DNA of 64,000 nucleotides from Candidatus Nanoarchaeia archaeon (lineage in GTDB: Archaea > Nanobdellota > Nanobdellia > SCGC-AAA011-G17 > JAFCDX01): positions 266,609-330,608 of the forward strand of contig JBAZJB010000001.1 of NCBI GenBank assembly GCA_041651575.1, read 5' to 3'. Both the position numbers and the translations under genes were made by a program. Below are positions 23,148-49,436 of this stretch, piece by piece; positions within the stretch are counted from its first letter, which is position 1; the number at the start of each line of letters is the position of its first letter. The notes below the pieces were generated by a model. That model was not told the DNA's origin, made no database searches, and saw only the letters and a program-made list of their open reading frames with translations.

Positions 23148-23151
23148 TAAA

Positions 23152-23418: not shown

Positions 23419-23435
23419 AATAAAACTCTTATTTA

Positions 23436-23487: not shown

Positions 23488-23603
23488 TTATTCTAATATA
23501 TGTATATTATTTTCTTATTTAAATAAATATTTAAATAAATACCTCTTTAACTTCCTTTTTTTTATTTTATTTATTCATATTCATATTTTGGAATAAATCA
23601 AAA

Positions 23604-24315: not shown

Positions 24316-24317
24316 AA

Positions 24318-24488: not shown

Positions 24489-24549
24489 TAACTAAAAACC
24501 CTCTAAAATATATAAAAATGTAAATGCCACTATATAGTGCCATATTAAA

Positions 24550-25502: not shown

Positions 25503-25547
25503 AATGATTTTAGAAACAATTATAAATAAGAAATTATTTAATAGAAT

Positions 25548-25832: not shown

Positions 25833-25835
25833 AAA

Positions 25836-26033
25836 ATGAAAAGAAGTACATGTAAATTATTAATAGGTATAGGCATTATTCTTCCAATAATATCGTTGCC
25901 TTTATTTGTAATATCCTTATTTCTTTTTGTGATTGCTATAGCAAAATGGAACTCAGAAACAGAATTTAAGAGTTTAAAACAAAGAGCTAAAGTTCATATT
26001 CATACAAAAGCAAAATATAAAGATTTAGAATGA
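25836..26033 (+). CDS. small membrane protein
   Basis: 65 aa; hydrophobic core. Confidence 0.3.
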   Translation: MKRSTCKLLIGIGIILPIISLPLFVISLFLFVIAIAKWNSETEFKSLKQRAKVHIHTKAKYKDLE

Positions 26034-26305
26034 AAAAAATTAAAGTTGTTAATTTTAGTTTAGGTAAGAATAAAGTTTCTATAGAAAGATTAACAAAATT
26101 ATTTAGTGAAAATTTAGTAATAAAAGTAAATAATAAACAAATTATAAAAGAACCTACACATCGAACAGGAACAAAAAAATTTAATTTTGAAGCAGGTGAA
26201 GATAAAGTTATGATAGATATTGTATTACCTTATTTTCCTGCTAAAAATCAATATGAATGTAAAGTTTGGGTTAATGGAAAAATAAAAGATATTTATTATT
26301 TATAA
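26030..26305 (+). CDS. hypothetical protein
   Basis: 91 aa; start overlaps the previous stop. Confidence 0.3.
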   Translation: MKKIKVVNFSLGKNKVSIERLTKLFSENLVIKVNNKQIIKEPTHRTGTKKFNFEAGEDKVMIDIVLPYFPAKNQYECKVWVNGKIKDIYYL

Positions 26306-26306
26306 A

Positions 26307-26648
26307 ATGGTTTCAAGAGATATTACAATATTAAATCAAAAGATATTAATAATTTCTATAGTAGTATCTGTTTTATTATCTCAATTCGCAAATTTATTAG
26401 CTTCGCAGATGTTTTTAGATTTTTATACTAAAACTACCTTCGCTAAATTGTTTTTAATTCTTATTTATATTTTAAGTATGTTATTTCTTTGTGTTTTTTT
26501 TATAGCCGGTTTATTTTGGATATTTAATATTAAATTTAAATATATGGAATTTAAAAGATTAAAAAAAGGTTTATTTTATTGTGGTTTAATCCTATTGATA
26601 TTAATTATGGTTGGTATAATTAAATGGATATTTCTTTTAACTCATTAA
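26307..26648 (+). CDS. small multi-pass membrane protein
   Basis: 113 aa. Confidence 0.3.
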   Translation: MVSRDITILNQKILIISIVVSVLLSQFANLLASQMFLDFYTKTTFAKLFLILIYILSMLFLCVFFIAGLFWIFNIKFKYMEFKRLKKGLFYCGLILLILIMVGIIKWIFLLTH

Positions 26649-26686
26649 CTCTTCTTATTATAGTAACGGAAGAAGTATTAAATTCC

Positions 26687-27040
26687 TTAGTTTAAATATT
26701 CTTTCTTTATAAATTTCATTAAATCCGGTCTAATTCTAACAATTAGCACCTTTTCTTTGATAAGATTATAAGCTTCATCAAAATTCATTCCATTTTTAAT
26801 TAAATAAACTAATGCAACAGCATTACTTCTGCTCATCCCCCCAATGCAAATAATAACAGCTTTCTTCTTTTTCTTGATTATATTTTCAACATGCCTAACT
26901 TTAGATTGGAATTGCCCTTTATTAATTTGTTTTCCATCTATCAAATCTCTAACTATCTCAATCTCTACATTCTTCAATTTCTTTATTTTCTCAAATTCCC
27001 TTAATGGAGCTGTTCCTAGATTTTTTGTTATCCAATACAT
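26687..27040 (-). CDS. dual-specificity / protein-tyrosine phosphatase (CX5R)
   Basis: 117 aa; VIICIGGMSRSNAVALVYL is the HCxxGxxRS P-loop. Confidence 0.6.
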   Translation of the reverse strand: MYWITKNLGTAPLREFEKIKKLKNVEIEIVRDLIDGKQINKGQFQSKVRHVENIIKKKKKAVIICIGGMSRSNAVALVYLIKNGMNFDEAYNLIKEKVLIVRIRPDLMKFIKKEYLN

Positions 27041-27399
27041 TTTAGCCTACCTCGCTGTTTAACTATATTTAAATGTTTTTAATATTAAATTTTAGTATAT
27101 GAATCTTTATATAGCTTAAAAATACAATTTATAAGTGATTTAAGATGAAAGATATTAAAAATTATGAAAATATGAGCAAGTTTAAGAAAGACCTTACAGA
27201 ATTGATACTTAGAGCAGATAAAGAAAACCTTGAAAAATTAAGAGAAGCATATCCTGAACTTGTAAAAGAATTGAGAAATTAAATTATAAGTAATATTTAA
27301 TTAAAGCAACAATAGAACATAAAATTAGGAAAATTGAACCTACTATAACAAACCATCTATCTGTAAACCTTTCTGGAATTGAATATCCTTTAAAGAATT

Positions 27400-27633
27400 T
27401 CATTTTTTATCTTCTATTTTTAATTTTATATAAAAGGCAAGTAATAAAATGATTATGACTATAAGGGCATCTTCTAGTAAACTTTTTATAAATGGACTTA
27501 TTATTTTTAGAAACATAGCATTTTCTCCATTCATCCAAAAATCTATTTTAGAAATAATTAAGATTACCCCCAAGATTATTATAAAATCTATTAAATGTTC
27601 CTTAAACCAATTCCAATCTACTTCTAATTCCAT
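27400..27633 (-). CDS. small membrane protein
   Basis: 77 aa; two hydrophobic helices. Confidence 0.25.
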   Translation of the reverse strand: MELEVDWNWFKEHLIDFIIILGVILIISKIDFWMNGENAMFLKIISPFIKSLLEDALIVIIILLLAFYIKLKIEDKK

Positions 27634-27638
27634 TTTAT

Positions 27639-28493
27639 TTAAATATTAAAAATAACATCTTTAAATGTTTTTGCCTTATCTTCTTTTTGTTCTTGACAAA
27701 AAAATATATTAAATGGTTTATTTCTACTCTCATTTTTAGATTCTCTAAAATTGCTTATGAATATATTCATTAAATCCATTAAGTCTAAACATAAATTATA
27801 AAGTTCATTAAAATTATAATCTGAAAAATTTTCATAAACTATAAGACTCATGATATGGGGGTCTTTTTTTAATGATTTTGAATTATAATAAAATAGAATT
27901 TTAGAATTTTTATATACTTTATTTCCTACCTCAAAGTCTCCAGCATCTTCAAATCTTATTCTAAATCCATGTTTATAGGAATTATAAGCTTCCCTATGTT
28001 TTGTATATTCTTCTTTAATTCTTTCTAAACTTTCTTTTAAATTCATATAAGATAATTCTAATACTCCTTTAGCTTTATCGCATTGTTTATTATGGGCTGG
28101 GTAACATAAAAGTTTATTTAAACTATTATCATCTAAAGATAAGGTATCATAAAAAGATAAAACATCGTCTACTTTAAATGTATTATAATTTTGTGCAAAT
28201 TTAAACATATCATCATCTTTACTTGATACAAGTCCACCAAAATCTTCGGCTAATTTACAAAATTTTATTAGTATCTCTATAAATAATTGTCTTTTAATTA
28301 TTGACGGGTCATCATTTGGAAATATATCTTTTGTATTATCAAAACTTTTTTTTATTACCATTAAAGGAATTATAAGTTTACATGGATTTTGATGGTCCCA
28401 GAATACCTCAGAAAATACTTTGTTTAATTCACTTTCTTTTAAATTAAGTTTATCAAGTAATTCTTTTTTATATTTTGTAAGTTCTTTGCTCAT
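27639..28493 (-). CDS. hypothetical protein
   Basis: 284 aa. Confidence 0.35.
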   Translation of the reverse strand: MSKELTKYKKELLDKLNLKESELNKVFSEVFWDHQNPCKLIIPLMVIKKSFDNTKDIFPNDDPSIIKRQLFIEILIKFCKLAEDFGGLVSSKDDDMFKFAQNYNTFKVDDVLSFYDTLSLDDNSLNKLLCYPAHNKQCDKAKGVLELSYMNLKESLERIKEEYTKHREAYNSYKHGFRIRFEDAGDFEVGNKVYKNSKILFYYNSKSLKKDPHIMSLIVYENFSDYNFNELYNLCLDLMDLMNIFISNFRESKNESRNKPFNIFFCQEQKEDKAKTFKDVIFNI

Positions 28494-28682
28494 TTCTTTT
28501 TAACCAGTTTTTCCTTTTAAAGAATTTCTAATATAAAAAGGTTCGTTTTTAGTCTATTAAAAAATAGGTCTTTTCTTTATAAATAAGTAAGATACTCCTT
28601 TTTAACAAACTAAATAAATAGGAAGATTTATAAAAAGGTAAATATATACCCCAATATATAGGTTGATGGGGTTAGTTAATTA

Positions 28683-29282
28683 ATGAATAAAAACTTAATA
28701 ATTTTGGTAGGGATATTTTTAATTCTCCCAATATTTGTATCTGCTGGAATACCTCATTCAGTTTATGGATTTTTACCTAGTTCTGATGGAACAACAATAA
28801 CAGCTTATGTAGAAAGTAGACCATCGGAGATTCTTACAGATAATATTGGTATAGGTGGAAATTCGAAAGTTAATGAAGGATGGTTAATTGATATAGGAAA
28901 TTTTAATACCCCCTGGAAAATTGGTGATATTTTAATTATAGAATTTCCTAATAAAAATATAAATTTAATTTTAAATGACGCTGGAGCTCAAGAAGTAAAA
29001 TATACAAGTTCAACAAAAGCTTCTATCACTACCATAACTAATGATTCGGATAAAGAAAGTATAAGTAACATAAATCCTATTGTAGGAAATAAAACTATAA
29101 CCGAACCAAAGAAAACATTACAACAAAAAACCATAAATTCTTCAAATAAAACAGAACTTAATAGTACTTTATCTGAGAATGAAAATAACAATAAAACAAA
29201 AAACTTTATAAAGTGGGGAATCTTTTTATTTCTAATAATTATAGTAGTGGGGGTTATATTTATAAGAAAGTTTAGAAAATGA
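28683..29282 (+). CDS. secreted surface protein with shared N-domain and C-terminal TM anchor
   Basis: 199 aa; signal peptide; AGIPHSVYGF...AYVESRPSEILTD domain shared with ORFs 31483 and 32142; C-terminal hydrophobic anchor plus KFRK. Confidence 0.45.
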   Translation: MNKNLIILVGIFLILPIFVSAGIPHSVYGFLPSSDGTTITAYVESRPSEILTDNIGIGGNSKVNEGWLIDIGNFNTPWKIGDILIIEFPNKNINLILNDAGAQEVKYTSSTKASITTITNDSDKESISNINPIVGNKTITEPKKTLQQKTINSSNKTELNSTLSENENNNKTKNFIKWGIFLFLIIIVVGVIFIRKFRK

Positions 29283-31498
29283 AATTATATAATTATTTAA
29301 TATTAATATTTTTATCTTTATTTATAATATCTACTTTTGTATATGCCTTATCTGAATCTTTTTTAATAGAACAAAGCGGGGATAAATTTAATTTAGGTCA
29401 AACTATTTATGGTTTAACGGGTGGAATTAGTGATACTTACCTTCCAATTTTACTTGCAAATCAAGTTTGGGTAGATAGTCAAGGAATAAATACTGGAACT
29501 TATAATTATCAACAATTTTTAGATTTCTATGCGGTAACTAATGTTAGTACAGGAAAAGGTACTGCTGGTTATGTATATCAACAAGACTCAAATAGAGATA
29601 ATAAACCTGTAGATGATTACCTATTTTTTGATAACATCGATACTTATCAAAAATGGGTGTCCTATTGGAATGGGACTGCTGTGGTATCTGGTTATATAAA
29701 TTATACTTCTTACGCATTTGCATGGAATTATACCTTAGATATACTTGGTTCTGAAGTAAAGGTAAAAGATGCATCCGATATTGAAGGTACGGTTTTAACT
29801 ATTTTAGGAACAAATTATACCATTGCAGATGCTACTGTCAGTAATACATCATATGGTATGCTTGATAAGTTAATTTTACTTGGAGGAAATGAAATCATCA
29901 TCTTTGAGGGAGAAACTAAAAATGGAGTTACTGTTACAGGCGTTGATGTTGCTGAAACAAAATGTATAATTCAATATGATAGTACACCTTATATTATAAA
30001 TTTAGGGGAAATTCAAACAATGCCAGACGGTTTAATGATTGGGGTTTTAGACGTGACGTATATGGGAGCAGGTTTAGATATTTGTGAATTAGCTCTCGGA
30101 GCAAAGAAAATTATATTAGAACAAAATAAAGAAGTAGAAGTTAATGGAATTAGAATAGTTAATACTACTGTTAGTTTGAATGATGGAACAACAGGATTTA
30201 ATCAATTATCTATAGTTTATATTCCTACTAACAAAACATATTTGAAAGCAGGAGAATCTTTGAAAGACCCAGTTTTTAATGCATTTGCAATAACTTTAGA
30301 TAAAATTGTTGAATCCACAGAAGAAATTAAAATAGACCCACAAGGAGATAAAGTAAAATTAACTGTTAAAAATAAATTGGGAAATCCACTTAATAATTTT
30401 ACCATATGTCATTTAAATGGAACAAAAGTTTCAGGTGCAAGAAGTTTTGTATGGGGGGATGTTAATAATCCGTTTATTGCTTGGGAAGGTGCCGGGGTAA
30501 ATATTACTAATAATACTATGAATGTAGCAAGATTAGACCAAATGACGGGAATTAGATTCTTAGCAGAAGGGAATAAAGAATCACATATTTATGAAATTAT
30601 AAACATAGATACTTCCGCAAACGAAACAGATATTAAAGAACTTGATACAGGATACATTTATTATAATCTTCCTTATTATGAAGGGCGAGTTACAACTTTT
30701 AGTGATATAAACTATAATATACAATTAGCTTTTGACCAAGATACAAGTACCAAAATGCAATGGATTAATTTTACACATCTTTCAGATGCATATGGTATGA
30801 ACTATTGGACAAAGAATGGTGGAAATATTACTTTTGGTAATACTTCTTCTATGTTAAATCAAAATGCAAATGCTGTTGATAATTGTTCAATTAAATTTGG
30901 TGAAGTTGATGTATCCAAAGAATCAGGAATTCATTTAAAACTTTTGAACTTTACTTTCTTATGGGATTCAACAGACGATGAAATTGAATTTGCAAAATAT
31001 TCTGTTGATGGTTCAGCACAAAGTAAAATTGGCTCAGGTTATTTTGTTCAAAAATATAATAATGATAGTTACACAAAAACCACAAGAACCGAATATGGTA
31101 CTAAAGTTGATATAAATCTAAAGAACGATGGTGAAGCAATAATCTACTATCCAGATGAAGCTACATATGCAGAAGTTAAAATATATGCTTTAGAAAATCC
31201 TCTAACTCCAATTGGCGGTAGCGGGGGGGGCGGTGGTGGTTCGGGTGTAGTTGAATTAATAAAATCTACAAATAAAACTGGAGTTAATGCAATTTCTCTT
31301 CCTCCAAATACAGGATTAGTAAATGCTGAAGATATTTGTGATAGTATAACTTATTCAGATGCTGTAACAAAATGGGACCCTTATACTCAAATGTATAGTG
31401 GACATCCTTGTGGAACACCTGTTAATAATTTTAATTTAGAATATGCTGTTGGGTATTTTGTAAGTATTACTCAAAATTCAACATGGAGTTTACAATGA
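29279..31498 (+). CDS. large secreted surface (glyco)protein with poly-Gly linker and shared C-terminal domain
   Basis: 739 aa; signal peptide; many N-x-S/T sequons; GGSGGGGGGSG linker; C-terminal domain shared with ORF 31483. Confidence 0.5.
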   Translation: MKLYNYLILIFLSLFIISTFVYALSESFLIEQSGDKFNLGQTIYGLTGGISDTYLPILLANQVWVDSQGINTGTYNYQQFLDFYAVTNVSTGKGTAGYVYQQDSNRDNKPVDDYLFFDNIDTYQKWVSYWNGTAVVSGYINYTSYAFAWNYTLDILGSEVKVKDASDIEGTVLTILGTNYTIADATVSNTSYGMLDKLILLGGNEIIIFEGETKNGVTVTGVDVAETKCIIQYDSTPYIINLGEIQTMPDGLMIGVLDVTYMGAGLDICELALGAKKIILEQNKEVEVNGIRIVNTTVSLNDGTTGFNQLSIVYIPTNKTYLKAGESLKDPVFNAFAITLDKIVESTEEIKIDPQGDKVKLTVKNKLGNPLNNFTICHLNGTKVSGARSFVWGDVNNPFIAWEGAGVNITNNTMNVARLDQMTGIRFLAEGNKESHIYEIINIDTSANETDIKELDTGYIYYNLPYYEGRVTTFSDINYNIQLAFDQDTSTKMQWINFTHLSDAYGMNYWTKNGGNITFGNTSSMLNQNANAVDNCSIKFGEVDVSKESGIHLKLLNFTFLWDSTDDEIEFAKYSVDGSAQSKIGSGYFVQKYNNDSYTKTTRTEYGTKVDINLKNDGEAIIYYPDEATYAEVKIYALENPLTPIGGSGGGGGGSGVVELIKSTNKTGVNAISLPPNTGLVNAEDICDSITYSDAVTKWDPYTQMYSGHPCGTPVNNFNLEYAVGYFVSITQNSTWSLQ
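31223..31230 (+). repeat. G8 homopolymer within the Gly-linker coding region of ORF 29279..31498
   Basis: gcggggggggcgg read directly; genome is about 30% GC, so this run is conspicuous. Confidence 0.8.
31364..31435 (+). repeat. 72-bp perfect direct repeat (copy A) shared by surface-protein genes 29279 and 31483
   Basis: Identical to 31987..32058 (gtaacaaaatgggaccc...aataattttaat). Confidence 0.85.
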
Positions 31499-32121
31499 AA
31501 AATAAAATAAAAATCATTCAAATTTTTTGTTTGTTAATGTTATTAAGTTTACCTCTTATATCAGCAGGTACGCCTCACATTAATTGGGGTTATGTAAATG
31601 ATGCTGTAGATGGAACATTAGCAAATGGGGCTAATGTTACGGCTTATATAGAAACAAGACCTACAGAAATATTAACAGATATTGTAGGAGTTACTGGTAA
31701 TTCTGGAATATCAAATGCTTGGTTAATTGATACTGGTAATTTTCCAACTGCTTGGTCAGCAGGGAATAACTTAATAATACAAATTGATAAAAATGGTTAC
31801 AAATCAAACACAAATATAATATTAGATAACTCTGGCTCTCAACAAAGTGTTAATATGACTCTTTCAAAAATTTTAATATTAGTTAAACCTATCAATAAAA
31901 CTGGAGTTAATGCTATATCTTTATTATGGAATAGCCAATTAATTACTGCCCAGGATATTTGTAATGATGTTCAATATTCAGATGCAGTAACAAAATGGGA
32001 CCCTTATACTCAAATGTATAGTGGACATCCTTGTGGAACACCTGTTAATAATTTTAATATAGAAAAGGGAGTAGCTTATTTTGTAAGTGTTACTCAAAAT
32101 TCAACTTGGGTGATGAAATAA
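31483..32121 (+). CDS. secreted protein made of the shared N-domain plus the shared C-domain (minimal family member)
   Basis: 212 aa; N-domain AGTPHINWGY...AYIETRPTEILTD...NFPTAWSAGNNLII; C-domain NKTGVNAISL...TKWDPYTQMYSGHPCGTPVNNFN. Confidence 0.5.
   Translation: MEFTMKNKIKIIQIFCLLMLLSLPLISAGTPHINWGYVNDAVDGTLANGANVTAYIETRPTEILTDIVGVTGNSGISNAWLIDTGNFPTAWSAGNNLIIQIDKNGYKSNTNIILDNSGSQQSVNMTLSKILILVKPINKTGVNAISLLWNSQLITAQDICNDVQYSDAVTKWDPYTQMYSGHPCGTPVNNFNIEKGVAYFVSVTQNSTWVMK
31987..32058 (+). repeat. 72-bp perfect direct repeat (copy B)
   Basis: See copy A. Confidence 0.85.
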
Positions 32122-32141
32122 AAAGAGTTATATATTATTAA

Positions 32142-34832
32142 ATGGACAATATAAAAATGAAAAATAAATTTAAAATAGGATTTTTATCAATTCTCTTAGT
32201 TTTATCTTTAATCTCGGTTAGTAATTTGGTTTCAGCAGGAACACCACATACAGTGTATGGATATGTATTTGATGCTACTGACGGAACATTAGCAAATGGA
32301 GCTACTATTACAGCGTATATTGAATCAAGACCTTCTGAGACATTAACTGGTACAGTGGATGCAACAAATTGGTGGGATATTGATGTAGGTAATTTTCCAA
32401 CTGCTTGGTCAGCAGGAAATAATTTAATAATTAAAGTTGATAAAAGTGGGCATAAAGATACTACAAATATAATTCTTGATACAAGCGGTGCACAACAAGC
32501 TTATGATATGACTTTACTTCCACAATACGATTTAGATTTATCACCAACTACTCAAACGATTAATACGGTTCCAGGAGTAAATTATTATGAATATTATATT
32601 AATATAACTAATATGGGATATGCAAATGATACTTTTCTTGTATATTTGAATGGAGAATATCAGTATACAACTGATGTACTTCCTTCTTATTGGTATACAG
32701 AAGATATGTGGTATTCTAATACTACAGACACTTTAGCAGGTACATATATAGATAATATAACGGTAGTATCTCAACATGATTCAACTAAAAGAAAAACTTT
32801 TTTACTTACAATAATTGTTAATCCAATATATGGCATAGATTTATCTCCAAAAACACAAAGTATTAGTGTATATCAAGGAACAGATTTTGAAGTTAGTTAT
32901 AATGTTACTAATATTGGGAATATAAATGATACTTATTTAGTTTACTTAAATGGAAAATATAATTATAGTATTGATGAACTTCCTTCTTATTGGTCTTCAG
33001 AAGAGTTTTGGGATTATACTGCAGATGAACCTATAGGAACAGTATATACAGACCTATTTTTTGTAATATCAGAACATAATCCAAATGTAAATGATACTTT
33101 TGCATTAACTGTAACAGTTATTGCTCCTCCCTGTGTTCCTAATTGGATTTTAAATTCTACTTGGACAACCTGTAATCTACTTGATTCACAATCTAAAAAT
33201 TATTATGATTCAAATAGTTGTGGAAATGAAACAGGAAAGCCTACAGATATAACACAATCATGTGATTTTTGTACTCCTAATATAATTGCTATAGCACCCG
33301 GAAGCTGTTCAATAAATGATACAGCTACCACAATTTTTGATGACTCAAATAATTGTTATGCTCAAACTGGATTGGAAAGCGACCAAGTTCCAAATCCAAT
33401 TGTAAATTCTTGTGACTATTGTACTCCTTCCATAAGTTCAAGTAATTCAACTTGTGGAACAAATGATTTATTCACAGAAACATTTACAGATTCAAATGGT
33501 TGTTATGCTCAAACAGGACTTATTTTAGATAATGTTCCTTTATCACTACAATATACTTGTGATTATTGTACTCCAAATATCCAAACCACAACAGAAAACT
33601 GTACTACAAGTGATACTTACACTACCACATTCACAGATTTAAATGGTTGTTTTGGTGTAACTGGATTAGTTTTAGACGCTGTTTCTGTACCAACAATAAA
33701 TTCATGTGATTATTGTACTCCATTAATAACCTCCACTAATTCAACATGTCAACCAAATAATACTTCAACAGAAACATTTACAGATTCAAATGGTTGTTAT
33801 GGTTTAACAAATTTAAACGCGGATAAAATTCCAAATCCAATAATATATGGTTGTGTTTATGTAGCCCCTTCTTGTTCTCCCGATAATTGGACATTAAATA
33901 CCACTTGGTCAAGTTGTAATGCAAATGATTTACAATACCAAGTTTATTATGACCCAGATAATTGTAATAATAACACAGGAAAACCTACCGATGTAAGTCA
34001 AGCTTGTGATTTTTGTACTCCAAGTATATTTGATACAAATTCTACTTGTCAATTAAATGATTTATTTACACAATCATTCTCCGATAATAATAATTGTTTT
34101 GCTCAAACAAGTCTTGTAGCAGACAAAGTTCCAAATAGTAATAGTTATTCTTGTGATTATTGTACTCCTTTAGTTGTATTAACAAATTCAAGTTGTAGTA
34201 TTAATGATACCTTTACAGAAAGTTTTACAGATTCAAATGGTTGTTATGCTCAAACAAATTTGGCTTCAGATATAGTAATACCTGCTCCAACATTATATGC
34301 TTGTGATTTCTGTAATCCCTCATTAACATCCACTAATTCAACATGTCAACCAACCAATACTTTAACAGAAATCTTTGCAGATTCAAATGGGTGTTTTGCA
34401 TTAACTAATTTAGTTTCTGATGATATCTTTATTCCTAATCAAATAGTATATAATTGTACTTATGTTGCTCCAGTAACTTCTTCTGGTGGCGGAGGAGGCG
34501 GTGGTGGAGGCGGAGGTTCAGGTAAACCAACCTGTGTTGAAAAAGATTATAATTTCACAGATTGGTCAGAATGTTTAGTAGATGGAAAATCAACAAGAAC
34601 TTATATTTTGAATAATAAAAAATGTATTAAAAATACAAAAACATATGATGTAACTTTATACTTAGAAAAAGATTGTTATTATAAGGAAGAAAAACCAGTA
34701 CAAGAATCAATAGAAGAAGATAGTGGTATGACTGGAATTACTGGTGGGGCAGTTGTAGATGGAAATGGTTTATTTAGTTCAATAGGAGATTTCTTCTCAG
34801 GTATTTGGAATTGGTTTAAAAATTTATTTTAA
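32142..34832 (+). CDS. giant secreted surface protein: shared N-domain, duplicated ~100-aa domain, about 12 tandem Cys-rich ~45-aa repeats (CDYCTP...), poly-Gly linker
   Basis: 896 aa; repeat units SCDYCTP(S/N)I...NSTC...FTDSNGCYAQT(G/N)L; linker SSGGGGGGGGGGGSG. Confidence 0.5.
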   Translation: MDNIKMKNKFKIGFLSILLVLSLISVSNLVSAGTPHTVYGYVFDATDGTLANGATITAYIESRPSETLTGTVDATNWWDIDVGNFPTAWSAGNNLIIKVDKSGHKDTTNIILDTSGAQQAYDMTLLPQYDLDLSPTTQTINTVPGVNYYEYYINITNMGYANDTFLVYLNGEYQYTTDVLPSYWYTEDMWYSNTTDTLAGTYIDNITVVSQHDSTKRKTFLLTIIVNPIYGIDLSPKTQSISVYQGTDFEVSYNVTNIGNINDTYLVYLNGKYNYSIDELPSYWSSEEFWDYTADEPIGTVYTDLFFVISEHNPNVNDTFALTVTVIAPPCVPNWILNSTWTTCNLLDSQSKNYYDSNSCGNETGKPTDITQSCDFCTPNIIAIAPGSCSINDTATTIFDDSNNCYAQTGLESDQVPNPIVNSCDYCTPSISSSNSTCGTNDLFTETFTDSNGCYAQTGLILDNVPLSLQYTCDYCTPNIQTTTENCTTSDTYTTTFTDLNGCFGVTGLVLDAVSVPTINSCDYCTPLITSTNSTCQPNNTSTETFTDSNGCYGLTNLNADKIPNPIIYGCVYVAPSCSPDNWTLNTTWSSCNANDLQYQVYYDPDNCNNNTGKPTDVSQACDFCTPSIFDTNSTCQLNDLFTQSFSDNNNCFAQTSLVADKVPNSNSYSCDYCTPLVVLTNSSCSINDTFTESFTDSNGCYAQTNLASDIVIPAPTLYACDFCNPSLTSTNSTCQPTNTLTEIFADSNGCFALTNLVSDDIFIPNQIVYNCTYVAPVTSSGGGGGGGGGGGSGKPTCVEKDYNFTDWSECLVDGKSTRTYILNNKKCIKNTKTYDVTLYLEKDCYYKEEKPVQESIEEDSGMTGITGGAVVDGNGLFSSIGDFFSGIWNWFKNLF

Positions 34833-35157
34833 AAATACTAATTAAATTATTTGTAATTTCTTTAATAAGTTTATTTAATTGTATTCATTCTTCATATCTT
34901 TATTATAATAGGATTCAGAAAAAACAATAAAATAACCTATTTATTTTCTCTATCAATCTTTTCTCTTATAGCTCCTAAAACAAATTCTGCTCTTGACCTA
35001 TATCCTTTCTTACTCTTTTTCCAGGTTTTATCAATTTCATTGATTAACTCTGAAGGAACACTAACATTTACATAATTTTTTCTCATACTGTATATGTACC
35101 AAAACATTTATATAGCCCTTTTTGTTACCCATACCGTATAGAAAAAGAGGTTAGAAA

Positions 35158-35520
35158 ATGAAAATTAAATTAATAATCGGATTACTTATAATTTCTATAT
35201 TTTTAATAAGTGGATGTAATCAAGAAAATATTAATCCTGCTCCCTTGAATTGGCAAGAATTATTAGATAATTGTCAAAAAAATTTAGATGAATGTAAAAT
35301 GCTTGGAATTCCAAAAATAACAGAATTTACTATTAATACTGAAGATTTAATAGGAAAAAAAATTGACTTTGATATATGTAAAATAGAATGGGTGAAACAA
35401 AACCCAGATTTACCTTTACCTAGTCAATGTTCTATTCAAGTTTGGGGGAACCAATTTCAAAAAAATCCAGATAAATTAATAAATTTAAAAGTTTTTTGTG
35501 ATTGTTGGTATAAAGAATGA
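35158..35520 (+). CDS. small lipoprotein (LISGC lipobox-like)
   Basis: 120 aa. Confidence 0.4.
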   Translation: MKIKLIIGLLIISIFLISGCNQENINPAPLNWQELLDNCQKNLDECKMLGIPKITEFTINTEDLIGKKIDFDICKIEWVKQNPDLPLPSQCSIQVWGNQFQKNPDKLINLKVFCDCWYKE

Positions 35521-36260
35521 AAATGAAAATAATATTGGGGACATTAGTACTTTGTTTATTTCTTATAAGTGGATGTAATAATGGAATAATTTGTAACAAA
35601 CCTTATATTCAAGTAGGAACTGAGTGTTGTTTAGACCAAAATAGTAATTCTATTTGTGATAAAGATGAACCAGAAAAAAATGAAGAAAAGAATTATTCTA
35701 CAATAAATTCTGGTATAATATTACCAGAAGGAAAATGTATTATTAAAGGTTCAGTTGCTCCTACTGTTATAGATGTAACCTGCACCCAAAATAGTGATTG
35801 TTACGAATCTGCTCGAGGTATAGGCACTACTGATATGAGTTTAGTTTATTGTTCTGGAGCCACACAATCAGAAGGAATACAAACTTTTAAAGAATGTAAA
35901 GAGTATGATAAAGAAAAAGGTTTATGGACAGGAACAGTGTTATGTAAAGATAAACAAGATTGTTATGATTTCTATCAAAAAGTGAACCAATATTATAGTG
36001 ATGTTCCAATTCCAGAAACAATGGATTGTAAAGAGACATCATTTAAAAAACTTCCTGATACAAACAATAATTTTATAAGTTGTAATACTAACATAGATTG
36101 TATTGAAAAAATTATGCCTGGAATTAATTCACCAGAAATACCCTCAGAATTACGTTCTTTATATTTAGAATATTATGGTATAAGATGTAATAATAATTTT
36201 TGTGAAGTAAATGAAGGACTCTTTACTCAGTGGGGAAGTAGTTTTGTTAGTAAAATATAA
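35517..36260 (+). CDS. Cys-rich lipoprotein, paralog of chromosomal 12829..13383
   Basis: 247 aa; LISGCNNGIICNKPYIQVGTECCLDQNSNSICDKD. Confidence 0.45.
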   Translation: MKMKIILGTLVLCLFLISGCNNGIICNKPYIQVGTECCLDQNSNSICDKDEPEKNEEKNYSTINSGIILPEGKCIIKGSVAPTVIDVTCTQNSDCYESARGIGTTDMSLVYCSGATQSEGIQTFKECKEYDKEKGLWTGTVLCKDKQDCYDFYQKVNQYYSDVPIPETMDCKETSFKKLPDTNNNFISCNTNIDCIEKIMPGINSPEIPSELRSLYLEYYGIRCNNNFCEVNEGLFTQWGSSFVSKI

Positions 36261-36285
36261 TCTTTCCATTTTTATAATTTAAAGA

Positions 36286-36936
36286 TTAAATAAAAATTTT
36301 ATCTAACTCCACTTTTTCTTTTTCTATACCAATATGCGTATAAATTTGTGTAGCCCTGTTATCTGTATGCCCAAGCATTTTTCCAATAGCCAATAAGTCC
36401 ATACCTTTATTATAAAGATATGTTGCATACGTATGTCTTAATGTATGGAACCTATAATTGAATACTTTTCTGCCCTTACTATCAAATCCGATTGAGGTTC
36501 TTATACCTGCCTTTTCTAAATGACTATTAAATTTTTTTCTCATCACAGAAATGTTATATTGTTTATCTAATCTCAAACGCATAGGGAATAGATATTTACT
36601 ACCTCCTATATACTGCAACCATTTATCCAAAAGTGGAATTAATGGTTTTGGTATTGCTACATTTCTATCTTTACCATATCCTTGAACAGACCTATTTGGA
36701 TTTTTAGAATCTTTTATAGATAAAACTCGATTATATATATCGATGTCTTCTACTTTTAATTTACATAATTCTCCAATTCTTAATCCACAAAAAAACCCTA
36801 ATAAATAAGCCATCATATAAAGAGGTTCATTTACCACCCCAAATAATCTTTTTAATTCTCTTATTTCAAATACTTTTGGTAGTTTATATGGTGATTTCGC
36901 TTTGTCTCCTCTAAACATTTTCGTCAAGCCTCCCAA
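36286..36936 (-). CDS. int: tyrosine recombinase/integrase, catalytic domain
   Basis: 216 aa; GLRIGEL (Arg), HTLRHTYAT (HxxR), TQIYTH (Tyr nucleophile). Confidence 0.7.
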   Translation of the reverse strand: MGGLTKMFRGDKAKSPYKLPKVFEIRELKRLFGVVNEPLYMMAYLLGFFCGLRIGELCKLKVEDIDIYNRVLSIKDSKNPNRSVQGYGKDRNVAIPKPLIPLLDKWLQYIGGSKYLFPMRLRLDKQYNISVMRKKFNSHLEKAGIRTSIGFDSKGRKVFNYRFHTLRHTYATYLYNKGMDLLAIGKMLGHTDNRATQIYTHIGIEKEKVELDKIFI

Positions 36937-37327
36937 TTAATTTTCTTCCCATTTCAAGAATTTCTAAACCCAAACAAGCTTTTTCTCTTTTGAGAACATT
37001 AGCATTTAACATTTTAGCCCGTTTTGGACTTAGCATTTTGTTCTTTATTTTTTCTTTATAATGCTCTGGAATTAATGTAGTATCCAAATAGTTGAATGCT
37101 GTTATTGGACTTATTCCAAATTTTTCCATACCTTCTTTGATTTTCTTCTCTATTTCTGCTAGTTCATATTTGTAATATTTCTGGTTCCTTATCCTCGATA
37201 AATGATACATTATGGTCTTAGTAGATAGCTCTAATTGCGTTATTGTCCTAACCACCAACCTAACGTATTCCGCCTTGAAAAAGACGTCTGTATTCTTCTC
37301 TAATGCCATTTTTCCTATTATATCCAT
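36911..37327 (-). CDS. int: integrase N-terminal (SAM-like/core-binding) domain in a different frame from the catalytic part (frameshifted or split integrase)
   Basis: 138 aa; 26-nt overlap with the catalytic ORF; one indel would fuse them into a ~345-aa integrase. Confidence 0.4.
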   Translation of the reverse strand: MDIIGKMALEKNTDVFFKAEYVRLVVRTITQLELSTKTIMYHLSRIRNQKYYKYELAEIEKKIKEGMEKFGISPITAFNYLDTTLIPEHYKEKIKNKMLSPKRAKMLNANVLKREKACLGLEILEMGRKLIGRLDENV

Positions 37328-37447
37328 CTTAAGTACCTCCTATATTTTAATTTAGATGTCAGAAAAAGGGTTACCCCAAAACTGAAAAAAATAGGTAAAA
37401 AGTACCCAAATAATATAAATTTGGATTTAAATTTTGGTAGTGAGCTC

Positions 37448-37478
37448 AGCAGGTATGTGCATTGATCTAGTGAAAAAA
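37448..37478 (+). repeat. attR-like direct repeat: duplicated tuf 3' end, still encoding ...[11 protein letters not shown]-stop
   Basis: 30/31 identity to 21761..21791; reading frame conserved with synonymous substitutions (tta->cta, aag->aaa) and its own stop. Confidence 0.7.
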
Positions 37479-37504
37479 TAAATTCTTAAAAAATTTGGTG
37501 ATTA

Positions 37505-38990: not shown

Positions 38991-39160
38991 CTTTTTAAAT
39001 TAAAATTCTCTATTAATGAAGAAAATATTACATTTTCTGAGATTTTAGTTCCGTTTAAGGAACATCATGAGTACTTAAATGAACATTTGAGTATGAGGCA
39101 GCAAAATTTAGTGAGACTCTAAATTTATTTAAGTTACAATCTTGTAGCCTTGCATTTTTG

Positions 39161-40628
39161 ATTCCTGTTGATCCTGCAGGAGAATGCTGCTATTGGGATT
39201 CGATTAAGCCATGCAAGTCAGGGGTAGCAATACACCGGCATAAGGCTCAGTAACACGTCGATAATCTAACCTTAAGTCTAGGATAACCTTGGGAAACTGA
39301 GACTAAAACTGGATAAAAGAAAGATACTGGAATGTTTTTTCTTTGAAAGGTAACGCTTAAGGATGAGTTGGCGGCTGATTAGGCTGTTGGTGAAGTAAAG
39401 GCTCACCAAACCAAAGATCAGTAGGGGCCCTGAGAGGGGTAGCCCCGAGAAGGGTACTGAGATACTGACCCTAGCCCTAAGGGGTGCAGCAGGCGCGAAA
39501 ACTTTACAATGCGCGAAAGCGTGATAAGGGAATCCCAAGTGCTTATCCATTGGATAGGCTTTTGCCAAGTGTAAAAAGCTTGGAGAATAAGTGGTGGGCA
39601 AGACTGGTGCCAGCCGCCGCGGTAACACCAGCGTCCACGAGTGGCATTCACTATTATTGGGTCTAAAGCATTCGTAGTTGGTTTGTCAAGTCTTTTGTGA
39701 AATTGTTGGACTTAATTCAACAGCGTGCAAGAGATACTAACAAGCTCGAGACCGGGAGGGGACAAGAGTATTTCAGGGGGAGCGGTAAAATGTTATAATC
39801 CTTGAAAGACTTCCAGTGGCGAAGGCGCTTGTCCAGAACGGTTCTGACAATGAGGAATGAAAGCTAGGGGCGCAAAGCGGATTAGATACCCGCGTAGTCC
39901 TAGCCGTAAACGCTGCGAGCTATGTGTTGCATATTCCTAGAGAATGTGCAGTGCCTAAGTGAAGACGTTAAGCTCGCTACCTGGGAATTACGGTCGCAAG
40001 GCTGAAACTTAAAGGAATAGGCGGGGGCTCACACAAGGAGTGGAGTGTGCGGTTCAATTGGATTCCACCCCGGAAATCTTACCAAGATCGACGGCAGAAT
40101 GAAGGTCAGATTAAAGGTTTTACCTAACAAGCCGAGAGGTATTGCATGGCCGTCGTCAGCTCGTGCCGTAAGGTGTCCAGTTAAGTCTGGCAACGAGCAA
40201 GACCCACATGTATATTTGCTAACATTTCAGTAATGAAGAATGAGCACAATATATGGACTGCCTGTGAAAACAGGAGGAAGGCGTGGGCAACGATAGGTCC
40301 GTATGATCTGAATATCTTGGGCTACACGCGCGCAACAATGGTAGGGACAATGGGTCACAACTCCGAGAGGAGAAGTTAATCCTCAAAACCCTATCTTAGT
40401 CTAGATCGAGCATTGAAACTCATGCTCGTGACAACGGAATTCCTAGTAATCGTTCATCACTATTGAACGGTGAATATGTCCCTGAGCCTTGCACTCACCG
40501 CCCGTCAAACCATTCGAGTAGGGTTCAAATGAGGTCTGTTTTTTAGAATAGAACAAATTTGGATTCAATAAGAAGGGTTAAGTCGTCACAAGGTATCTGT
40601 AGGGGAACCTGCAGATGGATCACCTCCT
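39161..40628 (+). rRNA. rrs: 16S rRNA (archaeal)
   Basis: 5' attcctgttgatcctgcagg; internal gtgccagccgccgcggtaa; 3' ggatcacctcct; flanked by a complementary processing stem (39091..39117 with 40665..40688). Confidence 0.9.
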
Positions 40629-40688
40629 ATATTTTTTTAAAATATAATATAATAAATAATAGAACTCACTAAATGCTTTTGCTCATAC

Positions 40689-40824
40689 TTGATTAACTGG
40701 GCCTGTAGTTCAGCGGTAGAATACCTCCCTTGCACATAAATTTTTGATAAAATTTTATCGAAGAAAGGAGGGGGTCTCGGGTTCGAAATAGTTTTTTCAG
40801 AAATTGAATAACTTTGAAAATCCC
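40689..40824 (+). tRNA. tRNA-Ala(TGC) with two introns: canonical anticodon-loop intron (40725..40755) and a 33-nt T-loop intron (40778..40810, between positions 59 and 60)
   Basis: Exons fold into acceptor GGGCCTG/CGGGTCC, D arm GTTC/GAAT, anticodon arm CCTCC-CTTGCA-GGAGG, T arm TCGGG-TTCGAAT-CCCGA, discriminator A. Confidence 0.65.
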
Positions 40825-40920
40825 GACGGGTCCACATTTAAGTATTTATTTATGAGGATCCATAACATAATTGTTTGGGTTTGATAGTTAATATATCATA
40901 TTAACTGTGCATAGGATTTG

Positions 40921-43806
40921 GAATACACTATTAGGTGGAAGACTAGGTTCAAAGTTCGAAGAAGGACGTGGCAAGCTACGATATGCTCTAGGGAGACGCA
41001 TGCAGTCTTAGAACTAGAGATTTCCTAATTAGATTCTATCTCTTCGGAGAAATCAGAAATGATAGGTTACGCGGAGAATTGAAGCGTCTTAGTATCCGCA
41101 GGAAAAGAAATCAATTCGAGATGCTGTTAGTATCAGCGAGAGAAAACAGCAGAGAGCAAACTGAATCCTACTGGAAACAGCAAGGAAATGTGGTGTTGAA
41201 GACTCATTTTTAGTCTTAACTGAGAATACAAAGTTTTCTGGAAAGAAACACTGTAAAGGGTGATAGTCCCGTAGTATTTAATCAGAAGATGTATGAGTAT
41301 CTTGAGTAAGGTCTATCGGAATTTAGGCCTGAATTTGGGAGACATTTACTTCCAACTCTAAATATTGCTTTGAAACCGATAGCGAATAGTACCGTGAGGG
41401 AACGTTGAAAAGAACTCGTAATAGAGAGTGAAAAGAATCTGAAACCTAATAGTTATAGCATGATGCTGCTCTTAGGAGTTGCATCGTACGTTTCGAATAA
41501 CGGGCCAGGGAGTTTACTTAAGTAGCAAGGTTAATTTGAAAAAAGAAACCGAAGCGAAAGCGAGATCCCGCAGTTCACGAGGGGAAAAGTATGAAAATGC
41601 TTTAAGTTACTTAGGTATGACCCGAAACCGATCGATCTAATCCAGGGCAAGGCGAAGTTTCTGTAAAAGGAAATGGAGGCCTGAAGAGGTTCTGTGAGAA
41701 AGCGTTCTTCTGACTCTGGATTAGGAGTGAAATGCCAATCGAGACCGGTAATAGCTGGTTCCTGTCGAATTTGATCTGAGTCAAGTCTCAACAGAGGAAG
41801 CTTAAATGGTAAAGATCCTGATTTGAGGTTTTGGCTAGGAAACTAGTCGGCCTCTTGTCAAACTAAGAACGTTTAAGTTCTGTAGAAGTTGGGAAACGGG
41901 GTTGTGGGGTAAGCTCGCAATCCAACAGGGGAACAACCCAAGCCAACAGTTAAGGTCCCAAAATATCAATTAAGTGTTAACGGGTGAAAGGTGTATACTA
42001 TCTCAGACAGAAGGGAGGTAGGCTTAGAAGCAGCCATCCTTTAAAGAAAGCGTAATAGCTCACCTTTCAAGATAGTGTGCCCTGAAAATGGACGGGGCTA
42101 AATTGATTACCGATACTGTTGAAATCTGAAAAGATATTGGTAGACAGGCGTTTTTCTTGGATAGAAGTATTTTCGTAAGAAGATATGGACCAAGTAAAAT
42201 TGCGAATCCTGGCGGTAGTACGGAGCAACACAATGTTAGAATCATTGGTATCGTAAGGGTAAGGGTTTCTCAGCAATGCAGTTCAGCTGAGAGTTAGTTG
42301 ATCCTAATCACTACATAATTTGAAGAGTGAAAAAGGGAAAAAGGTTAAAATTCCTTTACTATCTAAGTACATTCGGCAACGAAATTTTAATTTTTGACAC
42401 TTTGGGATAGACCAACATTTTTAATCTGAAATGTCAATCAAAATAAATTGCAGGAGTATCGTAATGATGAGAATGCAATTAAATTTGAGATGAGTGGACA
42501 TTTGTTCATTTGGTTAATTTCTAGAGTCCATGAAAAGGAAATTAAAAGGATCTTAGATAATCATACCCAGAACCAGCACAGGTACCCTAGGTGAGAAACC
42601 TAAGATATGAGGGAAGAATCGAGTTAAGGGAACTCGGCAAATTAGTCCCATGCCTTCGGTATAAGGGATTCCTGCGATTGTATTTGTACGAATGCAATTA
42701 CAGGATGCAATAACAAGGGCGGTCCGACTGTTTAACAAAAACATAGCTTTCCGCTACTCTGTAAAGATTAGTATGGAAGGTGAAGTCTGCCCAGTGCGAG
42801 TATCCGAACATTCCTTCCAAGGAAACTAAGGACTCGTAAACGGCGGGAATAACTATAATTCTCTTAAGGTAGCGTAATACCTTGTCGTTTCAATGACGAC
42901 TTGCATGAATGGCGTAACGAGATTGTCACTGTCCCTAACTCGAATCCCCCGAACACTATATTCAGGTGCAAAGTCCTGAGACCTCCAGTGGGAAGCAAAG
43001 ACCCCGTGAAGCTTCACTATAGTCTGTTATTGTAGTGTGAAATTTTATGTGCAGTGTAGGTGGTAGCTGCTAAGACTCAGACGCTAGTTTGAGTATAGGC
43101 GAAATATGAGACACCACTCTTAAAATTTTATATTGCTAACTTCTGAAAGGAAGGACAGTAGCTGATGGATAGTTTGGCTGGGGCGGCATGCTCTTGAAAC
43201 GGTATCAAGAGCACCCAAAGGTCAGCTCATTTGGTTTAGAAATCCAAAGTAGAGTGTAAATGCAAAAGCTGGCTTAACTGTACTCTGAACAATAAAGGGT
43301 GCAGGAAGGAAACTTTGGTTTAGTGAACCCCTATGCTTCGTTTATGGGAGCTAGGGCTAATAGAAAAGCTACTCCGGGGATAACTGAGTTGTCGCGCCTG
43401 AGAGCTCATATCGACGGCGCGGTTTGCTACGACGATGTCGGCTCGCCTTATCCTGGCTGTGCAGAAGCAGCCAAGGGTGGGGGTGTTCACCCATTAAAAA
43501 GGCTCGTGAGCTGGGTTCAATACGTTGCGAAACAGTATGTTCGATATCTAGTGGAGGTGTTCGTGTCTGAGTGGAAAGATCATTTAGTACGAGAGGAACG
43601 GTGGTCTGGGGCCTCTGGTGTATCTGTTATCTGATAAGGTAGGCAGAGCAGCTACGCCCCTTGGGATAAGAACTGAAAGCATCTAAGTTCGAAGCCCTCC
43701 GCGAAAAGAGACACACATAAAATGCTCATAGAAGATGAGCTTGATAGGATCGAGGTGTAAGCATCAAGGTAACGAGATGTTCAGCCTGCGGTTACTAACA
43801 TTTTTT
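40921..43806 (+). rRNA. rrl: 23S rRNA (ends approximate)
   Basis: gaagaaggacgtggcaagctacgata near the 5' end; conserved 23S blocks throughout (e.g. gacccgaaacc-like, GTPase-centre and sarcin-ricin regions); flanking processing stem 40906..40919 with 43812..43825. Confidence 0.85.
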
Positions 43807-43916
43807 TCCAAAAATCCTATGCACATTTATTTTTTATTTCTATAAATTTTTCCAAATCCTAAATTTTAATTTCTTAAAACATTAAATTTATATATAGCTA
43901 TTGCAGTATACATTAT

Positions 43917-44247
43917 GTAGGTAAGATAGCTAACTATCGCTTGCAAAAGTGAGGAAAGTCCGTCCACTAAACTTTTGATAAAAATCAAAAGATAATATCG
44001 GTTGCTTGTCTTGACACAAGTTCCAGAAATGGAAGGCAACTGCTCAGAAACGGAATGTCCTTTAGCTGTTATAAAAATGTGGCTGTGAAATTTCTCGTGA
44101 GAGAGATGAGTTAACCAGCTGAATAGGTTAAAGGGAACATTGAAACGACAGACCCTATCAGTGCAAGTCTGTAAAGACGCTTAGTAGAATGTTAGCACAA
44201 TCTTTCCAAATGGAGATTGACAAAAGACGGCTTATTTCTTACCTACA
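43917..44247 (+). ncRNA. rnpB: RNase P RNA (archaeal type A-like)
   Basis: P1 stem gtaggtaaga/tcttacctac; CR-I gaggaaagtccg; CR-V acaaaagacggcttat; about 331 nt. Confidence 0.7.
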
Positions 44248-48195: not shown

Positions 48196-48268
48196 GACCG
48201 ATGTAGTATAACGGTTATTATATGCGGCTGTGGCCCGCATGAAGAGGGTTCAACTCCCTCCTTCGGTC
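48196..48268 (+). tRNA. tRNA-His(GTG) with encoded G-1, directly upstream of hisS
   Basis: Anticodon arm TGCGG-CTGTGGC-CCGCA; T arm GAGGG-TTCAACT-CCCTC; G-1/C73 pair; one acceptor mismatch and a weak D stem. Confidence 0.55.
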
Positions 48269-48290
48269 CTTTTACCTCAGAGGTGAAAAA

Positions 48291-49436
48291 ATGGAAACTA
48301 TAAAAGGGTTTAGAGATATTATTGGAATTGATGCAATTAAAAGAGAAAGAATTAAAGAGATTCTTATAAAAAACTTTAAACTTTATGGTTTTGAACCTGC
48401 AGAAACACCTATAATTGAAGCAGAAGAGTTTGTTAAAGCAGATAATACAAGTGAAGTTATCTCTGATATTTATAGATTACAAGATAAAGGACAAAGAAAA
48501 TTAGCTTTGAGATATGAATTTACTTTTCAATTAAAAAGACTTGCTCAAAACAAAAAATTACCTTTTAAAAGATATCAACTTGGAGAAGTTTTTAGAGATG
48601 AACCTGTAAGTTCTAATAGATTCAGGCAATTTACTCAATGTGATGTTGATATTGTTGGTTCTAGTATAAAAGATGAAGCAGAAATATTATCTCTGACTAA
48701 AAAAATCTTTGAAGATTTAAAAATTGATTGTGTAATTTATATGAATAATAGAAAATTACTAAATGAAATACTTGATAAAAATAATATTTTTAATAAAATA
48801 GAAGTTATAAAAGAAATTGATAAATTGGATAAATTAGATGAGAAAGAGATAAAAGAAAACTTAAAAAAGTATAAAGCAGAAAAAATACTTGATATATTTA
48901 AAAAACCAGAATCTTATTTTAAAACCTTTGATTCTTATAAAGAAATTGAAGAACTTAAAAAATATTGTGAATATTATAATGTTGAAATTAAGTTTTTACC
49001 TTCTTTAGCTAGAGGTTTAAGTTATTATAACGGAACTATTTTTGAAATAAAAACAAAAGAGATGAAAGAAACTATTTGTGCAGGAGGAAGTTATTTAATT
49101 AATAATATTCAATCTAGTGGAATTTCTTTTGGATTGGATAGAATTGGTTCTATTGCTCAAGTTGATGTTGATGAAAAAAAGGTTTTGATAATTTCTCTAG
49201 AACAAGATAAAAATTCAATAGAACTAGTTAAAAAATTAAGAAAAAACTTTGTTTCTGTAGATATAATGTTCGGAAAAGTTTCTAAAGCTTTGGAATTTGC
49301 AAATTCTTATAATATTCCTTATGTTGTGTTCATTGGAGCTGAAGAAATTAAAAAGAAAAAATATAAATTAAGAGACATGAAAACAGGCAAAGAAACTTAT
49401 TTATCTGAAAAAGATTTAATTAAGAAGTTACTATAA
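48291..49436 (+). CDS. hisS: histidyl-tRNA synthetase (short form)
   Basis: 381 aa; class II motifs KRYQLGEVFRDE, RFRQFTQCDVDIVG; N-terminal GFRD. Confidence 0.7.
   Translation: METIKGFRDIIGIDAIKRERIKEILIKNFKLYGFEPAETPIIEAEEFVKADNTSEVISDIYRLQDKGQRKLALRYEFTFQLKRLAQNKKLPFKRYQLGEVFRDEPVSSNRFRQFTQCDVDIVGSSIKDEAEILSLTKKIFEDLKIDCVIYMNNRKLLNEILDKNNIFNKIEVIKEIDKLDKLDEKEIKENLKKYKAEKILDIFKKPESYFKTFDSYKEIEELKKYCEYYNVEIKFLPSLARGLSYYNGTIFEIKTKEMKETICAGGSYLINNIQSSGISFGLDRIGSIAQVDVDEKKVLIISLEQDKNSIELVKKLRKNFVSVDIMFGKVSKALEFANSYNIPYVVFIGAEEIKKKKYKLRDMKTGKETYLSEKDLIKKLL

Follow-up and report, generated by a model that had tools for sequence, protein, structure and literature searches.

In archaeal tRNA introns, the motif called bulge-helix-bulge (BHB) consists of a 4-bp helix between two 3-nt bulges, and for introns at the canonical position 37/38 the first two anticodon bases lie in this helix (PMC4090602). 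The helix of a 37/38 intron thus comprises positions 32-35, and its 5′ bulge consists of positions 36 and 37 plus the first intron base; by analogy, a 59/60 intron would place positions 54-57 in the helix and positions 58 and 59 plus the first intron base in the bulge. Position 59/60 is a published non-canonical archaeal intron site (PMC4090602), interrupted in pre-tRNA-Cys(GCA) and pre-tRNA-Pro(GGG) of Candidatus Micrarchaeum acidiphilum ARMAN-2 and also in Thermoproteales tRNAs, and in vitro the splicing endonuclease (EndA) of ARMAN-2 cuts an intron at this site (PMC3239211). As many as three introns per tRNA gene are established in Archaea (PMC8450103, PMC4090602): such genes of Thermoproteales, Thaumarchaeota and Korarchaeum can combine two independent BHB introns, one canonical and one non-canonical, in a co-linear gene that default finders miss. 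Among DPANN archaea, disrupted tRNA genes have been reported in Pacearchaeota and Woesearchaeota, and EndAs with an L3 loop are widespread and associated with increased tRNA gene disruption (PMC5829648). EndA also cuts BHB motifs in archaeal pre-rRNA (PMC7714728, PMC10515664), where the cuts release and circularize the rRNAs and splice no tRNA. Finally, an uninterrupted tRNA-Ala(UGC), for which splicing is unneeded, occupies the rRNA operon spacer in Euryarchaeota and other DPANN (for example, the Pacearchaeota loci L014 and L005, and Halobellus).

The window analysed here (the whole 64,000-nt stretch of DNA, part of a 315-kb contig) derives from a DPANN archaeon of class Nanoarchaeia that is close to the metagenome-assembled genome (MAG) STD1_207: archaeal SSU, LSU and RNase P models match its sequence, and the nearest genome is that Nanoarchaeia MAG. 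At 40699-40834 it carries what is, with high probability, a two-intron, EndA-spliced tRNA-Ala(UGC) gene. The gene and its surroundings are laid out as follows.

39161-40628, plus strand: 16S rRNA (RF01959, 1386 bits, archaeal model)
40650-40693, plus strand: 3′ strand of the 16S processing stem, which pairs with 39086-39130 (duplex −31.8 kcal/mol)
40699-40834, plus strand: complete pre-tRNA-Ala(UGC) gene, 136 nt, positions 1-73 (exon strings located in the window, spliced product called by ARAGORN)
40699-40734, plus strand: exon 1, 36 nt, positions 1-37 (acceptor 5′ strand, D arm, anticodon stem 5′ strand, CTTGCA)
40735-40765, plus strand: intron 1, 31 nt, canonical position 37/38, relaxed BHB
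40766-40787, plus strand: exon 2, 22 nt, positions 38-59 (anticodon stem 3′ strand, variable loop GGGTC, T stem 5′ strand, TTCGAA)
40788-40820, plus strand: intron 2, 33 nt, T-loop position 59/60, hBHBh′ motif
40821-40834, plus strand: exon 3, 14 nt, positions 60-73 (T60, T stem 3′ strand, acceptor 3′ strand, discriminator A)
40912-43817, plus strand: 23S rRNA (RF02540, 2429 bits, archaeal model)

These positions were set by locating the exon strings in the window, where GGGCCTG begins at 40699, CCTCCCTTGCA at 40724, TCGGGTTCGAA at 40777, TCCCGA at 40821 and CGGGTCC at 40827. All sequence elements quoted in the original prediction are present and its lengths are exact (a 136-nt gene with inserts of 31 and 33 nt), yet its coordinates were all exactly 10 nt too low. 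GGGCCTG had been placed at 40689, the 37/38 insert at 40725-40755 in place of 40735-40765, and the insert that splits the T-loop at 40778-40810 in place of 40788-40820; taken literally, those coordinates yield the ‘introns' CTCCCTTGCACATAAATTTTTGATAAAATTT and CGGGTTCGAAATAGTTTTTTCAGAAATTGAATA, both of which include exon sequence. With both inserts removed, 72 nt remain, in which ARAGORN recognizes tRNA-Ala(tgc) folded into a complete cloverleaf, in agreement with the earlier claim that the exon segments rebuild a complete tRNA-Ala(TGC). The alanine identity features are present in the spliced product (G3·U70, the A73 discriminator and the anticodon UGC), which has a 7-nt anticodon loop (CTTGCAA), the T-loop TTCGAAT and a short D-loop; CCA is not encoded.

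The gene sits in the 16S-23S spacer, flanked by the RF01959 and RF02540 matches, and hence inside the rRNA operon as had been proposed. The 16S processing stem ends 6 nt before the tRNA 5′ end, and the region of its 5′ strand (39086-39160) is invariant between the window and the closest relative, the MAG STD1_207 (locus L011). The same enzyme and motif as in the described pre-rRNA BHB stems are expected on the same transcript here, with the stem adjoining the tRNA; however, a strict BHB was sought in this stem and not found, its internal loop and bulge fitting a relaxed BHB only. An archaeal RNase P RNA (43920-44243, plus strand, 126.9 bits) lies about 100 nt past the 23S 3′ end, as if it were a member of the operon; it was absent after 23S in all six metagenome relatives whose sequence extends far enough downstream. 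Over the whole window, no 5S rRNA was detected.

The T-loop intron has the structure of a splice site. Its outer helix is the T stem (40777-40781 with 40822-40826, 5 bp), as in the ARMAN-2 introns, which are likewise short and hosted by a DPANN archaeon. The central helix of 4 bp is formed by 40782-40785 (TTCG) and 40815-40818 (TGAA), through the pairs U54-A, U55-A, C56-G and G57·U, and is bordered by bulges at 40786-40788 (AA/A, the slash marking the cut) and 40819-40821 (AA/T), so that the cuts between 40787 and 40788 and between 40820 and 40821 fall exactly at 59/60. After a T·T mismatch (40789/40814), an inner helix of 4 bp follows (40790-40793, AGTT, with 40810-40813, AACT). The motif is thus a near-textbook, nearly strict hBHBh′, whereas the ARMAN-2 tRNA-Cys intron is 13 nt long and of the relaxed hBH form; the worry attached to the original prediction, that the second insert might show no BHB motif, is dispelled by this hBHBh′ at 59/60. 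Among 200,000 composition-preserving shuffles of intron 2, 221 (0.11%) offered the full central helix together with an inner helix of at least 4 bp. Moreover, the spliced sequence aligns without gaps to intron-less orthologues (66 of 72 positions identical to both L014 and L005; 60-66 of 72 across the intron-less spacer tRNA-Ala compared). The interrupted tRNA gene is therefore not a product of chance. The strict 4-bp register has a folding energy of −9.1 kcal/mol and a 5-bp register with an extra A58-U pair −11.4 kcal/mol, making the latter 2.3 kcal/mol more stable; cutting in the 5-bp register would give an 8-nt T-loop, and the fixed spacing of the enzyme presumably selects the 4-bp register.

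Intron 1 departs further from the strict motif. Its bulges are C36 A37/C (40733-40735) and A A/A38 (40764-40766), and its central helix consists of G35-C (40732/40759), U34·G (40731/40760), U33-A (40730/40761) and C32-G (40729/40763), with an extra A (40762) or, alternatively, a G·G mismatch; a 5-bp inner helix (40736-40740 with 40754-40758) follows. This arrangement fits the published ‘relaxed' BHB class and the strict motif is absent. The check for BHB motifs attached to the original prediction thus came out near-strict for the second insert but relaxed alone for the first. The BHB conformer of intron 1, at −30.6 kcal/mol, is 5.6 kcal/mol less stable than the best cloverleaf-constrained fold (−36.2 kcal/mol), the competing fold being dominated by a 10-bp hairpin within the intron. 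The ending of the window's intron 1, C[A/G]AAG-AA before A38, recurs in L011 and in the Woesearchaeota locus L007. The anticodon-loop introns of the listed relatives are for the most part relaxed too: 14 of 47 have a strict central helix, and the count rises to 26 of 47 if an extra nucleotide is admitted.

Other kinds of interrupted gene were considered and rejected. Self-splicing group I or group II introns have a catalytic core of hundreds of nucleotides, against inserts of only 31 and 33 nt; the only match to an intron family that Rfam gave at a permissive threshold (Plastid-atpF, group II, minus strand; 21.7 bits, gathering score 52.5, E=1.3) is spurious. A split or permuted tRNA gene does not agree with three exons that are co-linear inside 136 nt. 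For a C/D-box guide RNA, both introns are too short, and by eye they lack the C (RUGAUGA) and D (CUGA) boxes.

Standard gene finding does not recover the locus. ARAGORN found no tRNA-Ala in the window or in the unspliced locus, by default or with -i, and over the whole window, intron mode included, it reported tRNA-His alone. When intron 2 was deleted by hand it detected the gene, yet misplaced intron 1 and miscalled the product as Ser(tga). The best Rfam tRNA alignment (21.5 bits, E=0.039, against a gathering score of 29) covers 40699-40785 and holds a single 33-nt insertion. It is this alignment that would speak for a gene with the anticodon-loop insert alone and an aberrant or missing T arm. 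However, besides falling below threshold, it omits the T arm and lets the acceptor pair, with mismatches, to CGGGUUCG, while the true CGGGTCC, CCCGA and A73 stand downstream, exactly after the BHB-flanked 33-nt insert, and intron-less orthologues have a full T arm. A one-intron gene has next to no probability left and is effectively refuted; a covariance model that prefers a single insertion, the other outcome that the original prediction had named against itself, is represented here by a sub-threshold, mispaired alignment. ARAGORN misses the two-intron gene, which also stays below threshold with the Rfam tRNA model. After annotation with these tools, a genome would therefore appear to be without tRNA-Ala(UGC), or its rRNA spacer would appear ‘empty'. 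Cases of tRNAs missing without explanation have already been noted in surveys of DPANN genomes (PMC5829648; bioRxiv 10.64898/2026.05.13.725050).

To place the gene among its relatives, species-representative genomes were scanned with a degenerate 5′ exon, which gave 26 loci. Candidatus Nanoarchaeia MAG STD1_207 (L011) carries the same two-intron gene, and the Woesearchaeota locus L007 shares both intron sites with the window, its introns being 13 and 27 nt long. A Micrarchaeota locus (L017) has the T-loop insert alone (about 80 nt by sequence reading), and two Pacearchaeota loci (L023 and L024) have the 37/38 intron alone. No introns are found in the loci L002 (Woesearchaeota), L005 and L014 (Pacearchaeota) and L018 (labelled as a Bathyarchaeota MAG), L014 being placed between SSU and LSU with a tRNA score of 74.4 bits. 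The tRNA-Ala of L018 (JAIMAA010000069.1), typical of DPANN, does not differ at all from the gene of the Woesearchaeota MAG L002, which suggests that the L018 contig is mis-binned.

A metagenome scan with the T-arm and acceptor of the window and a 15-45 nt insert matched at least 120 stretches. Parsing of the matches listed, together with the loci from the genome scan, yielded at least 101 non-redundant genes with a T-loop insert. Among the matches listed, 97 of the 101 distinct genes have the anticodon TGC (tRNA-Ala(UGC)), and for 91 a 16S 3′ end lies at most 700 nt upstream; Rfam placed tRNA-Ala between archaeal SSU and LSU in all six metagenome loci that were checked. By layout, 47 of the 101 listed genes have the T-loop insert only, 37 have anticodon-loop and T-loop inserts, 6 have D-loop and T-loop inserts and 11 have all three, so that an anticodon-loop intron is also present in 48 and a D-loop insert in 17. 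The two-intron layout of the original prediction is therefore real but far more ordinary in this clade than its wording implies, because the window's layout is common in the clade (37 of the 101 listed). The third insert, in the D-loop, is about 13-107 nt long, stands beside the 37/38 and 59/60 introns and gives genes of up to 261 nt; such genes include those of the loci L034, L062, L087, L109, L118, L122, L123, L127, L132 and L138, all on metagenome contigs. Intron-less, one-, two- and three-insert versions of tRNA-Ala thus exist across other DPANN genomes and, like the comparison with L011 below, lend the two-intron reading independent support.

The relatives also bear on the position of the cuts. 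Among the matches listed, which contain 100 distinct intron-2 sequences next to a T-arm fixed by the search pattern, the central helix in the 59/60 register forms all its pairs in 71 of 101 genes and at least three of four in 95, while full pairing is reached in at most 17 genes in any shifted register and in a mean of 2.5 (maximum 8) with shuffled introns. The h′ helix, counted column by column in the listed matches, shows a modest register preference only, since its start shifts between sequences. In minimum-energy folds of the listed genes, the central helix with the 3′ bulge appears in 38 of 101 and the strict motif in 9 of 101; minimum-energy folding is a weak BHB classifier, and the argument for the BHB accordingly rests on the register-specific counts with their controls. 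These counts weigh on the reading in which both introns are real but are cut elsewhere (at 36/37, and at 57/58 or 58/59), or in which cutting follows the 5-bp register of intron 2, with repair or trimming of the product afterwards. Such a reading draws on both exon-intron junctions lying within A-runs, so that the mature sequence cannot fix the cut, on the greater stability of the 5-bp register of intron 2 and on the relaxed motif of intron 1. Yet only 37/38 and 59/60 put both cuts alike in 3-nt bulges 4 bp apart, the spacing to which the enzyme responds (PMC4090602), and the full pairing in 71 of 101 listed matches belongs to the 59/60 register. In 45 of 101 listed relatives the intron does not start with A, and there no 5′ cut later than 59/60 fits a TTCRAAT loop. 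We consider this reading quite improbable.

Comparison with L011, which is 98.6% identical to the window over the operon, shows which parts of the gene are held constant. The exons have no changes in 72 positions, 16S differs by 0.1% and 23S (part) by 1.1%, whereas the spacers differ by 16.7% before the tRNA and by 5.2% after it, and intron 1 differs at 9 of the 31 columns of its alignment, or at 6 once a single indel shift is granted. Fixed exons beside diverged spacers and a diverged intron 1 are what would be expected if the gene is functional, with purifying selection on its exons and drift in loosely constrained intron interiors. By one of the changes in intron 1, CGAAG to CAAAG, a G·U in the central helix proposed for it becomes A-U. 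Intron 2 differs at 1 of 33 positions, in the hairpin loop. The two introns of one gene thus diverge from L011 at very different rates (operon average 1.3-1.4%), and intron 1 may have been exchanged, or its AT runs may make it a hot spot of mutation or slippage.

The same comparison weighs on the possibility that the locus is a dead tRNA gene, with two insertions that are not removed and another copy in the genome supplying tRNA-Ala(UGC). The failure of ARAGORN, the sub-threshold Rfam score and the lack of a strict BHB in intron 1 would all agree with a dead gene. A decaying pseudogene, however, would gather exon changes, and here the exons are unchanged against L011 while spacers and intron 1 have diverged by 5-29%. 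In both inserts, furthermore, the splice-site bulges are still placed exactly where cutting brings back 7-nt loops, and the same architecture with intact exons recurs in at least about 100 distinct sequences. Loss of function is thus very improbable, and the 40699-40834 locus is best read as the two-intron gene described above.

Several other features of the window were noted. A block of about 15.7 kb (21761-37485) is bounded by a 39-nt direct repeat, 90% identical between its copies (21761-21799 and 37447-37485), the left one forming the 3′ end of the gene for EF-1alpha (20515-21795). Just inside the right repeat lies a gene for a tyrosine recombinase of the Phage_integrase family (36289-36936, minus strand), with an overlapping ORF at 36911-37327, and the other scanned ORFs of the block had no Pfam matches. 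L011 joins window position ~21798 directly to ~37938, the block being absent there, and 450 nt separate the right repeat from the resumption of homology to L011. The block is probably an integrated mobile element or provirus. Inside this putative element, an 896-aa ORF without Pfam match (32142-34832, plus strand) contains, at 33167-34412, at least eight tandem copies of a 147-nt (49-codon) repeat, at 60-80% identity and with recurring TGT (cysteine) codons.

On a contig that is otherwise archaeal, a 432-aa ORF (7297-8595, plus strand) matches bacterial Sigma-70 regions 2, 3 and 4; its neighbours are a YkuD L,D-transpeptidase and a response-regulator protein (1721-2530 and 6316-7203). Ribosomal proteins S12/S7 (303-1335) and EF-2 (17825-20008), neighbours in the cluster that archaea usually have, are here separated by the ~16 kb that contain this group; bacterial gene transfer, or another inserted block, is a possible origin. 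In addition, tRNA-His(GTG) (48197-48269) lies 22 nt upstream of the histidyl-tRNA synthetase gene (48291-49436), both on the plus strand.

Set against the described systems, the window gene changes no concept: its type of intron, the 59/60 site and multi-intron tRNAs are all established, and the statement of the original prediction that multi-intron and non-canonically interrupted tRNAs are known in Thermoproteales and some DPANN agrees with the literature (PMC4090602, PMC8450103, PMC5829648). It resembles the multi-intron tRNAs of Thermoproteales, Thaumarchaeota and Korarchaeum in all the traits listed for them above, and differs in belonging to DPANN Nanoarchaeia and in that three sites (D-loop, 37/38 and 59/60) recur in the spacer tRNA-Ala across many lineages, whereas the Thermoproteales introns are scattered over many tRNAs. 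From the ARMAN-2 tRNAs it differs in its isoacceptor, Ala(UGC), and in its location within the rRNA operon spacer. Unlike the intron-less spacer tRNA-Ala, which share its operon position, it would need splicing to yield its mature form. In the open-access papers and preprints searched, no description was found of the DPANN spacer tRNA-Ala as a recurrent one-to-three-intron gene.

Starting from the observed gene anatomy, motif geometry, exon and intron conservation and wide distribution, we infer splicing, the enzymes involved and the order of the steps in maturation of the tRNA-Ala. The tRNA would be transcribed within the precursor of the rRNA operon, in which positions 54-57 of the T-loop would pair with the 3′ part of intron 2 and positions 32-35 of the anticodon loop with the corresponding part of intron 1. 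The splice sites would then lie in 3-nt bulges, one on each side of a 4-bp helix, and the archaeal splicing endonuclease EndA would cut both bulges of each motif. A ligase of the RtcB type would join the three exons, and RNase P, RNase Z and a CCA-adding enzyme would finish the tRNA ends. EndA, RtcB and archease were not found by Pfam among the 49 scanned ORFs of the window, which covers 64 kb of the 315-kb contig.

The combination of a relaxed 37/38 site with a non-canonical 59/60 site implies an EndA of broad specificity, which accords with the spread of L3-loop EndAs in DPANN (PMC5829648) and with the 59/60 cleavage by the ARMAN-2 enzyme in vitro (PMC3239211). For the translation of its GCN codons, this reduced genome probably relies on EndA cutting both sites. 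As EndA is known to cut pre-rRNA BHB motifs, one precursor would here carry several EndA sites, and the four extra cuts would fall on a precursor that bears both rRNAs.

RNase P and RNase Z recognize the elbow that the T-loop and D-loop form in tRNA. A T-loop intron disrupts this elbow and could thereby act as a timing device. If so, the tRNA would not be excised from the pre-rRNA until EndA acts on the whole transcript, and release of the tRNA would be coupled to BHB processing and circularization of 16S and 23S. That the DPANN spacer tRNA-Ala(UGC) is a conserved, position-specific host of introns (D-loop, 37/38 and 59/60) with the T-loop intron as such a timing device is nevertheless unlikely, though not negligible. 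The recurrence of intron-bearing spacer tRNA-Ala speaks to distribution, not to function, and it could also reflect neutral persistence of introns in an irreplaceable single-copy gene. With at least about 100 distinct T-loop introns in one gene, in one- to three-insert forms, the family offers a comparative set for the substrate range of DPANN EndAs.
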